In this document: positions 31,227-32,516 of the stretch, piece by piece
Position numbering within the stretch: the first letter of the stretch is position 1
Layout: each line of letters starts with the position of its first letter
Source: a virus
DNA: 64,000 nt
IMG/VR virus record: IMGVR_UViG_3300007616_000002
Coordinates: 12,682-76,681 of that record
Reading direction: 5' to 3' (one strand)
Notes under the pieces: generated by a model
Seen by the model: the letters and a program-made list of their open reading frames with translations, nothing else
The model's database searches: none
What the model was told of the DNA's origin: nothing
Position numbers and translations under genes: made by a program

Positions 31227-32516
31227 GTGAGTGAAAACTCAGTCTATCTGGCTGGCCCCATCCAACACGCCGACAATCATGGGACGAACTGGCGCGAGGA
31301 GATTCAAGAAGTTTATCCTGACCGATTCGATTGGCTTGACCCGCTGTCGAAGTATGACCCCACCGACCCGAAGGTGGACTTTTACTTCGATGAGGATGAC
31401 CGAGACGACCTCTATGAACTGAAGACCCAGACGGCCGATGATGGCTCAAACAAGTATGTCACACCCACGGACATTGTGGAAGGTGACAAGCTCGTCATCG
31501 ATGAGGCTGATGCCATTCTTGTTGGTTGGTCGGTAGAGCAAGATTCAAGAGTAACTGATTCAAAGACTTCTGACATGAAAGTATGTCCTGAATGTGGCGA
31601 AGAAAAGAAGCTCTTAGCCAAACATATTCAAATGAGTGGGTGTTCATGGCCCAAAATTCCTGAACCCGATGTTGAGGCTATTGCGGGGATGGTTCTTGGC
31701 GATGGCTCAATTAATAACCGGGATGGTCTCCCCCGACTTGACATTAGTATGATTTCGGGGAAGTTTTTGGAGCATCTGTATGACCGTTTTGGGGTTTTAT
31801 CTGCTGGATTGAAGGTTAAGAAAACGGCCTCGGCTCAAGCAGTATCGCATCGTGAAAGTGGTTTCAATCCGGGCGCAGAGGCGTCGGAATATTCTGACGT
31901 GTATCGCTATTGGACAATTGGGCATCCAGTTTTTGAAGAATTTGCGTCTTGGTATGGACCCAATGGAAAGGAGATTCCAGACGTTTTCAAATTGACACCT
32001 GAATCGGCCCGATATTGGTATGTATCGGATGGTGGATTAAATTGGAACAAGAAGGCATCTCGGGCGTATGTTCAGATTAGTAGTGTTGTCGGTGCTTCAG
32101 ACGAACGACTTGAAGAGTTATTTGATGAGGTGGGATTCTCTCCCAATGTTGGGAATGGGGCTGTTCAGTTCTCCGTCGAGGAGTCAGAGAAGTTCCTTGA
32201 TTGGATTGGTGACCCGTTACCCAACTTCGAGTATAAATGGGAGTATAAATCGTTCAAGCAGTATGAGCGTGCAAAACCTTTGACCAAAGTTAGCTCAGCG
32301 GGGACCCCGATGGAGGTCATGTATCAGTACATGTTGAACGAACTTCACCCGCATCGAGAGCACGTCCCCATCGTGGTGTGGTGGATTGATGGTGAATACT
32401 CCAACAGCCACCTCTCACCGTGGATGGAGTATCACGCTGACCGCATAGAGTTCGACCGAGAGGATGCACTCAACACGCTAGAGTTCACACTCGAATCTGA
32501 CGTGATTGTCGAGTAG
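31227..32516 (+). CDS. Nucleoside 2-deoxyribosyltransferase-like protein with an in-frame LAGLIDADG insertion
   Basis: VYLAGPI..WR, D...IDEADAILV, SAGTPMEV, SPWMEYH. Confidence 0.8.
   Translation: MSENSVYLAGPIQHADNHGTNWREEIQEVYPDRFDWLDPLSKYDPTDPKVDFYFDEDDRDDLYELKTQTADDGSNKYVTPTDIVEGDKLVIDEADAILVGWSVEQDSRVTDSKTSDMKVCPECGEEKKLLAKHIQMSGCSWPKIPEPDVEAIAGMVLGDGSINNRDGLPRLDISMISGKFLEHLYDRFGVLSAGLKVKKTASAQAVSHRESGFNPGAEASEYSDVYRYWTIGHPVFEEFASWYGPNGKEIPDVFKLTPESARYWYVSDGGLNWNKKASRAYVQISSVVGASDERLEELFDEVGFSPNVGNGAVQFSVEESEKFLDWIGDPLPNFEYKWEYKSFKQYERAKPLTKVSSAGTPMEVMYQYMLNELHPHREHVPIVVWWIDGEYSNSHLSPWMEYHADRIEFDREDALNTLEFTLESDVIVE
31530..32282 (+). mobile_element. In-frame LAGLIDADG endonuclease insertion with no recognisable complete intein
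   Basis: IAGMVLGDGS and ARYWYVSDGG; T-richer DNA; removal restores VGW-TKV-SSAGTPME. Confidence 0.78.

Follow-up and report, generated by a model that had tools for sequence, protein, structure and literature searches.

We describe here a viral gene in which an enzyme resembling nucleoside deoxyribosyltransferase (NDT) is interrupted, in its own reading frame, by a complete LAGLIDADG homing endonuclease. The gene lies in a 76.7-kb virus record, IMGVR_UViG_3300007616_000002 of IMG/VR, of which we analysed the 64,000 nt from position 12,682 to 76,681 (hereafter the window). Within the window the chimeric open reading frame (ORF) occupies positions 31227..32516 of the + strand and comprises 429 codons plus a stop. 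In the reading that we consider probable, a mobile homing endonuclease cassette has inserted itself in frame near the catalytic Glu of the NDT-like enzyme and is tolerated there without being spliced out. An initial annotation of the DNA had already placed a LAGLIDADG endonuclease in frame beside the predicted catalytic Glu, and this is borne out by the single ORF, by a match to PF03161 and by alignment with homologues that are empty, that is, free of the insert. The same annotation put forward four possible explanations, of which a tolerated bifunctional fusion is the one favoured by the evidence presented below.

Anatomy of the chimeric gene

The chimeric ORF begins with a GTG codon, 7 nt past the stop of the preceding gene, and reads ..AILVGW / SVEQDSRV...YERAKPL / TKVSSAGTPME across the two borders of the insert. 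The N-terminal half of the NDT-like enzyme (residues 1-101, 31227..31529) carries the motifs YLAGP, WR, DPL.KY and D..LVGW, and the C-terminal half (residues 353-429, 32283..32516) consists of the loop TKVSSA, the GTPME motif (32301-32315, containing Glu363) and the motif SPW..H, with the family-invariant positions kept. The spacing between LVG[WY] and GTPME is exactly six residues in the uninterrupted homologues (HRTV-29 gp51, P0120, P0004 and 14 loci that we collected from IMG/VR and JGI metagenomes), and in the window it is 6 + 251. Because the uninterrupted homologues have exactly six loop residues, the extra block measures 251 codons, in agreement with the 753-nt insert that had been proposed between ..AILVGW and TKVSSAGTPME. 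The loop starts with Ser in many empty alleles too, and the borders can therefore be drawn at 31530-32282 or equally at 31533-32285, an ambiguity of one codon. The insertion point lies six residues ahead of the GTPME catalytic motif.

A linker of 15 codons (SVEQDSRVTDSKTSD, 31530..31574), delimited by alignment, leads from host Trp101 to the ancestral Met117 of the endonuclease, and the rest of the insert (residues 117-352, 31575..32282) is a complete I-SceI-like, double-motif LAGLIDADG homing endonuclease that lacks a stop of its own. The internal Met that had been noticed in the insert (MKVCPECG) is real, its ATG lying at 31575. It is followed by a CCHC zinc-ribbon-like motif (C120, C123, H133 and C139; 31584..31643), by LAGLIDADG motif 1 (EAIAGMVLGDGS, 31674..31709), which provides the catalytic Asp159 (31701-31703), and by motif 2 (ARYWYVSDGG, 32007..32036), which provides the catalytic Asp268 (32028-32030). 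All three were located from family-conserved columns of the alignment, and the zinc motif and both Asp residues are retained. Scanned alone against Pfam, the insert matches PF03161 at 26.6 bits (cut-off 25), and it matches phrog_11023 at 1.1e-41. The family to which it belongs numbers 1072 representatives at E<=0.001 (709 at E<=1e-10), mostly free-standing genes of 220-260 residues. Homology with the free-standing halovirus endonucleases runs from end to end: HGTV-1 gp50, VOLN27B gp49, HRTV-7 gp85 and HCTV-5 gp82, all of phrog_11023, share 28-35% identity with the insert and have the same zinc ribbon and termini. Those genes are intergenic, have their own start and stop and sit beside polB, thyX or dcd (upstream of polB in HGTV-1, between thyX and dcd in VOLN27B), whereas the insert of the window is stopless and embedded. 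Family members start with M-x-x-C-P-x-C-G and frequently end ..EYKW(E)...Y.E.K(P), and the insert has both features, extending from Met117 (MKVCPECG) to ..EYKWEYKSFKQYERAKPL352, with about 15 residues (102-116) outside the endonuclease homology. Of the 44 positions that the family conserves, the insert retains 38, the value for free-standing members (n=125) being 37.8 +/- 2.6; this count, like the endonuclease tree presented below, was built on the endonuclease rows of alignment A4. By homology, then, the insert is a whole LAGLIDADG endonuclease of the free-standing, I-SceI-like type.

Some further members of this endonuclease family deserve mention. A second free-standing copy is encoded by the same virus outside the window (G000:C1:2460-3368; L005 1342-2250); it is 302 residues long, has its own start and stop and a 60-residue N-terminal extension, is 36% identical to the insert and is identical to the database protein P0033 over 237 kept columns. 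Family proteins of 330-415 residues carry extra DNA-binding repeats (endonuclease-associated) or helix-turn-helix (HTH) domains, not pieces of a host enzyme. Two members, P0055 and P0068, have mutually similar C-terminal extensions of about 110 residues with no match in Pfam, which might serve in DNA binding or might be left over from a different host gene that was invaded.

The two NDT flanks (residues 1-101 and 353-429) align with small halovirus NDT-like proteins of about 130-190 residues. Within the nucleoside 2-deoxyribosyltransferase-like superfamily (PF05014 / PF15891), the match is to PF15891; recorded for the N-terminal half, it scores 17.9 bits against a cut-off of 30 and does not reach the Pfam threshold, and a search of NCBIfam gave no match; phrog_19940, which has no assigned function, is matched at 1.4e-26 in two stretches, and the homologue HRTV-29 gp51 carries the annotation nucleoside deoxyribosyltransferase. 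We use the label 'NDT-like' because the profile score lies below the curated threshold. Glu363 is part of the invariant GTPME, and predicted models place the catalytic Glu at the start of the helix that follows strand 4. Our scans of IMG/VR and the JGI metagenomes returned solely uninterrupted NDT genes and no further chimera, and a word-based search with residues 1-101 returned the query alone. Just upstream of polB, a 128-residue ORF (34782-35168, + strand) aligns weakly with NDT-like proteins over the last two thirds of their length (27% identity to P0120, E 6e-5). It is devoid of the GTPME motif and may be a divergent, non-catalytic NDT-like paralogue.

The source is most likely a haloarchaeal tailed virus, because the window has 14 tRNA genes, acidic proteins and homologues in haloarchaeal tailed viruses (HGTV-1, VOLN27B, HRTV-29 and PhiCh1). 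CheckV estimates the 76.7-kb record to be about half complete, and megablast against phage records gave no match. Logan contigs from three runs of three studies cover both junctions of the insert with zero differences; two of these runs may be source samples and one (2021) is independent. As both junctions are reproduced in three runs of three studies, the chimera is not an assembly artefact of one data set. The same chimeric protein is found on seven JGI contigs and two Logan/ENA contigs, the Logan/ENA member being identical at 428 of 429 residues with a start codon read as V instead of M as the sole difference. No contig that skips the insert, and so represents an empty allele of the same virus, was seen among the contigs of the three DNA runs, and no RNA run was listed as carrying the sequence.

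A second carrier among empty alleles

Among 1.84 billion representatives, one other protein joins this NDT family to this endonuclease family. P0003 (434 residues) holds a 236-residue endonuclease at exactly the same site, after the conserved Trp and six residues before GTPME. Its insert begins PAYRSE, the linker of the window not being conserved, and since it has no Met ahead of the zinc ribbon its endonuclease can be translated only from the NDT start. The catalytic residues with which the LAGLIDADG helices of the window end (Asp159 in ..MVLGDGS and Asp268 in ..YVSDGG) have their counterparts in Asp134 and Asp226 of P0003, which keeps 36 of the 44 family-conserved endonuclease positions. The two chimeras are well diverged: their NDT parts share 40% identity and their endonucleases 39-41%, and each has closer relatives among the uninterrupted proteins: P0120 (52% overall; 57% in the N-half and 58% in the C-half) and HRTV-29 (50%) in the case of the window, and L021 and L022 (48%) in the case of P0003.

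In a maximum-likelihood tree of the NDT part (n=18, insert columns removed), P0003 groups with L021, L022, L014 and L018 with a support of 86-92, and a clade of the two chimeras is rejected (delta lnL 48.6; approximately unbiased (AU) test, p 1.3e-5). In the tree of the endonucleases (n=128), by contrast, the two inserted copies are sisters (Shimodaira-Hasegawa-like approximate likelihood ratio test (SH-aLRT) 86), and together with two free-standing genes they form a four-member clade with a support of 95. Carriers and empty alleles are therefore interleaved, which means either repeated invasion of one site or repeated precise loss. Both would fit a homing cycle, and since divergence between the two chimeras is about the same for the endonuclease as for the NDT part, neither invasion nor loss can be assigned dominance. 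The initial annotation had named a fusion ancestral to all homologues as a finding that would overturn its proposal; we find the fusion to be the rare state, with two chimeric clusters against many uninterrupted homologues.

Both parts of the chimeras appear to be under constraint. A set of 27 NDT positions shows at least 85% conservation among 16 uninterrupted NDTs; 26 of these are kept in the window and 25 in P0003, and GTPMEV, SPW and H of the downstream half are present in both. Comparison of the sequences shows that the chimeric arrangement is not a one-genome accident and that its frame has been kept open. The GC content at third codon positions (GC3) drops from 0.61 in the NDT N-half to 0.42 across the insert (31530-32282) and rises to 0.69 in the NDT C-half, with neighbouring genes at 0.51-0.73; by this measure the insert is compositionally foreign to the genome, and the copy in the window looks like a comparatively recent arrival. 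As a separate feature, P0003 and two uninterrupted loci (L021 2534-3082 and L022 3001-3543), which form one NDT sublineage, have an extra helical segment of about 45-50 residues directly after the GTPME helix. Since it is found in chimeric and uninterrupted members alike, this segment is unrelated to the endonuclease insertion.

Structure prediction for the two chimeras required some care with the alignments, as A4, A5 and A6 misplaced the NDT C-halves onto the endonuclease and were discarded for folding, and correct alignments (A7 and A8) were obtained by limiting the endonuclease-only rows to six. AlphaFold2 on A7 gave a model with a mean predicted local distance difference test (pLDDT) score of 80.8, the endonuclease scoring above 90, the NDT strands and helices 77-95, and residues 105-114, 341-347 and 349-359 below 50. 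In a search against every PDB cluster representative, the NDT part of this model matched 7m5h_B (Z 14.1, 133 residues) across both halves as one domain, as well as the 2'-deoxyribosyltransferase 7o62_A (Z 13.2, 131/135 residues, root-mean-square deviation 3.0, model range 1..423), MilB (Z 11.8), the L. leichmannii-type NDT 1f8x (Z 10.4) and RCL (Z 10.2), every one of these alignments extending over model residues 1 to about 423. The endonuclease part matched I-WcaI (Z 17.1, 207 residues) and I-SceI (Foldseek E 4e-10, template modelling (TM) score 0.68-0.70). For P0003 (pLDDT 77.6) the corresponding values are Z 19.2 with I-WcaI, Z 10.4 with 7m5h_B and Z 9.7 with 7o62_A over 1..422. The predicted models have the pseudo-dimeric alpha-beta-beta-alpha-beta-beta-alpha fold of such endonucleases. 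Closure of the NDT fold, one of the checks that had been suggested at the outset, is predicted in both models; it appears sterically possible for the fold to close around a separate endonuclease domain in both proteins, which says nothing on activity.

Fate of the insert and competing explanations

The following scheme would account for these observations. A complete endonuclease of the free-standing type would have lost its stop codon and settled, with a short linker, in the loop before the catalytic Glu, from where it would be removed neither at the level of RNA nor of protein. The gene would be translated from its own GTG to give a 49-kDa two-domain protein, in which the NDT fold re-forms from residues 1-101 and 353-429, with the endonuclease tethered by two flexible linkers within the strand-4/helix-4 loop. 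The endonuclease domain would be made only within the host protein, which is obligatory in P0003; the retained Met117 could permit some independent initiation in the window, but P0003 shows no need for it. During co-infection, the domain would cut the empty NDT alleles of relatives at the conserved ..LVG(W/Y)/..GTPMEV.. site (predicted cut region ..GAY GCN GTN CTN GTN GGN TGG/TAY / ... GGN ACN CCG ATG GAR GTN..), and recombinational repair would then copy the cassette into the cut allele. As the insertion splits the target site and so destroys it, the carrier would be immune. We infer homing by site-specific cleavage of the empty allele from the patchy distribution of the insert, the empty state of the nearest relatives and the foreign GC3, all of which agree with it.

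Several considerations weigh against this explanation. The absence of splicing is argued from the non-detection of known elements, and the NDT-like assignment falls under the Pfam cut-off. The insertion is six residues from the catalytic Glu and enzymes of the NDT family are oligomeric, such that activity could be impaired. Closure of the fold in the AlphaFold models is partly built in by the uninterrupted NDT rows of the alignment. The chimeric clusters number only two, the sister relationship of their endonucleases comes from a quick tree (SH-aLRT 86), and with about equal divergence of the two parts the pattern could also stem from an ancient insertion that was then precisely lost several times, in place of repeated invasion.

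The rival that survives best, although we regard it as unlikely, is that the NDT-like enzyme is dead or dispensable and that the chimera is simply an endonuclease that borrows the start of its host and drags the NDT tail along as a passenger. The proximity of the insertion to the catalytic Glu would suit this idea, and the gene family occurs sporadically among haloviruses, which makes it probably non-essential; there is also the putative divergent NDT-like paralogue 2.3 kb downstream, but this is without the GTPME motif. A passenger tail would be expected to decay, or else the endonuclease to retain its own stop. Instead, both chimeras have an open C-half from which none of the family-invariant residues (GTPMEV, SPW and H) is missing, and conservation across the whole NDT part (26/27 and 25/27) matches the level of uninterrupted homologues despite about 60% divergence between the two.

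Removal of the insert after translation, either by HINT-less protein splicing or by proteolytic excision with the NDT fragments staying associated, strikes us as improbable. In the window, Ser is indeed the first residue of the insert and Thr the first one after it, the two linkers are predicted to be disordered and hence protease-accessible, and proteolysis has a precedent in fungal mitochondria, where in-frame intron-encoded endonucleases are freed in this manner. However, no Hint or intein model of Pfam matched the chimera at E<=1, whereas the same search detected Hint (E 3.6e-7) in the intein of the PolB gene 3 kb downstream, which served as a positive control; solved intein structures match the chimera models via their endonuclease domains only. 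The initial annotation had named a complete HINT fold as the observation that would refute it and had reported the lack of intein blocks B and F and of a terminal Asn, and its proposal stands: there is no HINT match, and the insert ends in Leu352. The faint likeness of SVEQDSRV to intein block A that it also reported is unsupported, since the second example starts PAYRSE. Nor are the junction residues conserved, as would be expected of an intein, being Ser102...Leu352/Thr353 in the window and Pro77...Asn312/Ala313 in P0003, which thus has Pro at position 1 and Ala at +1. With no HINT domain, no conserved junction residues and only about 15 residues that are not endonuclease, we reject an intein. 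An intein remnant, as had been suggested, is likewise unlikely: what is inserted has everything that a free-standing endonuclease of its family has, from the natural start through the zinc ribbon to the tail, and the same few residues are all that is left unaccounted for.

An RNA intron, excised through a bulge-helix-bulge (BHB) motif by the host tRNA-splicing endonuclease or in some other way to leave an ordinary NDT mRNA, seems very improbable. Archaeal rRNA introns carry LAGLIDADG genes and require only a structure at the junctions, so there is a precedent, and complementary hexamers do flank the insert. The initial annotation was right that TTGGTC (31526..31531) is the complement of GACCAA (32282-32287), but a splice meaning does not follow, as the match is no better than chance. 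The annotation had also been unable to build a strict BHB that restores the frame. In our explicit scan the best BHB-like candidate (31532/32275) pairs the hexamer helix with a G-U-rich central helix and removes 743 nt, after which the frame runs into a TAG stop; candidates that keep the frame have helices of only 2-3 bp, and candidate numbers do not exceed those at shuffled junctions (6 vs 6.1 +/- 3.3, and 2 vs 2.2 +/- 1.6). An archaeal BHB intron is disfavoured on these grounds, and the relaxed-BHB variant that had been offered as an option fares no better. Rfam (E<=10, 31000-32800) returned a tRNA-Pro and noise only, with no group I core or other intron family; a ribozyme of this class would have just 45 nt at its disposal beyond the endonuclease ORF, and reading continues without a stop into the exon that follows, both of which speak further against a group I intron. 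The insert is not bordered by direct repeats, a search for direct or inverted repeats around the junctions gave no more than chance, and the use of repeat pairs I2/I3 as excision borders would cost the gene its catalytic motif. An intron has no need to be stop-free and in frame on both sides, yet this is what we see in two diverged examples, and the endonuclease of P0003 is without a start of its own.

Taken together, no known splicing element was detected in or around the insert. Removal from RNA or protein by a route that employs neither HINT, nor a ribozyme core, nor a canonical BHB (for example a host or virus factor acting on the two disordered linkers, or unrecognised long-range RNA pairing) has in our judgement a very low probability. 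We find it more improbable still that the NDT-like enzyme has co-opted the endonuclease domain for sequence-specific DNA binding or for regulation, rather than harbouring a selfish nuclease. The persistence of the arrangement across deep divergence would be in keeping with such a role, and there are DNA-binding proteins elsewhere that derive from LAGLIDADG folds, WhiA being among the structural matches of the chimera model. Against this, both catalytic Asp residues and the other conserved positions are kept at the level of free-standing enzymes, the insert is patchily distributed, the closest relatives of the carriers being empty alleles, and its base composition sets it apart as foreign. Ribosomal bypassing over 753 nt, of the T4 gene 60 type, has nothing in its favour beyond having been suggested in the initial annotation and can be practically dismissed: the frame is open across the whole insert, with no stop at or after the take-off site, so that bypass is neither forced nor required, and the gap is 15 times the known hop of 50 nt.

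Endonucleases of the window and related systems

Other features of the window concern endonucleases with different lifestyles. The region 6423-8693 (+ strand) holds a TROVE/Ro60 gene that is split into two ORFs by an HNH gene and so constitutes a 'gene in pieces' with no intron or intein. TROVE piece 1 (6423-6911, +) covers profile positions 51-156, TROVE piece 2 (7686-8693, +) covers positions 273-360 plus the Ro60 vWA domain, and between them lies the HNH homing endonuclease (6896-7693, +), for which profiles identify NUMOD3, HTH and an endonuclease-associated repeat. A second HNH gene (3162-3965), with a GC3 of 0.35, abuts an RNA ligase gene (PF09414, 2263-3162, +), its start overlapping the stop of the ligase gene. 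The gene for the family B DNA polymerase (35206-39231, +, 1341 residues) contains a canonical intein, which starts around CFTPDTEV, ends ..VNIFN/C and has Hint and Intein_splicing matches in Pfam over residues about 608-950. The virus is heavily colonised by endonucleases, and with these three other lifestyles in the window (the split TROVE gene, the HNH gene beside the RNA ligase gene and the PolB intein) the reading of the NDT insert as a selfish element fits. Apart from the endonucleases, the window has fourteen tRNA genes in about 10 kb (24017-34490), interleaved with small ORFs; one of the tRNAs is reported by ARAGORN as a short tRNA-Glu(ctc) of 69 nt (27090-27158) with the anticodon at position 29.

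The NDT chimera shares features with several known systems. Endonuclease-containing inteins (PI-SceI, PI-PfuI, TliVMA and the PolB intein of the window) also place a LAGLIDADG endonuclease in frame near an active site, use the start of the host gene and form a domain insertion in the host fold of a nucleotide- or DNA-metabolism protein, but they have a HINT domain and conserved junction nucleophiles and the window insert has neither. In the nrdA/mobE locus of Aeromonas phage Aeh1, a free-standing endonuclease has made a gene in pieces. There, as in the TROVE gene of the window, a free-standing-type endonuclease has invaded a coding sequence without a splicing element and host function is presumed kept; in those two cases the host gene consists of two ORFs with their own stop and start, whereas the NDT chimera is one continuous ORF.

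The closest parallel is found in the DNA methylases of actinobacteriophages of the Taj_79 group, in which a 'lone' LAGLIDADG domain occurs without accompanying intein or intron sequences (Gosselin et al. 2023, PMC9957025; Arsenault et al. 2025, PMC11855218). This domain is predicted, by computation only, to be a domain of its own that is mostly inherited vertically and resembles a group I intron endonuclease (PMC9957025). Our case is similar in that the endonuclease is in the host frame with no detectable intein or intron, insertion-free homologues exist and the host fold is predicted to be intact. It differs in that the host is an NDT-like enzyme of an archaeal virus, the endonuclease is of the free-standing zinc-ribbon type and the site is six residues from a catalytic Glu; furthermore, the Taj_79 insertion follows the methylase phylogeny, whereas here the two carriers are separated by empty alleles in the tree of the host gene. 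A second comparison is offered by the ShiLan domain of mycobacteriophage methylases, described by computation only, which is a homing insertion without stops in the frame of its host and encodes an HNH endonuclease in a different frame (Arsenault et al. 2025, PMC11855218). The two share a disjunct distribution and a position between codons at a conserved site, and neither is an intein or intron; the in-frame product of the ShiLan insertion is a non-endonuclease loop, while that of the window is the endonuclease itself.

If our explanation is correct, it would add to the recognised habits of these enzymes. The splicing-free lifestyle has so far been inferred, by computation only, in actinophage methylases, and the NDT case would extend it to archaeal viruses and add evidence on gain and loss. 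What is new here is the archaeal virus, the different host enzyme, the proximity to a catalytic residue, the second diverged carrier and the interleaved empty alleles. The enzyme is small (20 kDa), nature supplies two chimeras and closely related empty alleles exist, so the system should be tractable for addressing the questions that it raises, namely whether an enzyme can put up with a 29-kDa domain six residues from a catalytic residue and whether such chimeras can home. The chimera also mimics a presumed step in the origin of large inteins, in which an endonuclease invades a host fold in frame. As usually taught, homing endonucleases have their home in introns, inteins or intergenic DNA; for a complete, apparently active one to live permanently as a domain within the frame of an enzyme would, if true, be a further, rare lifestyle.

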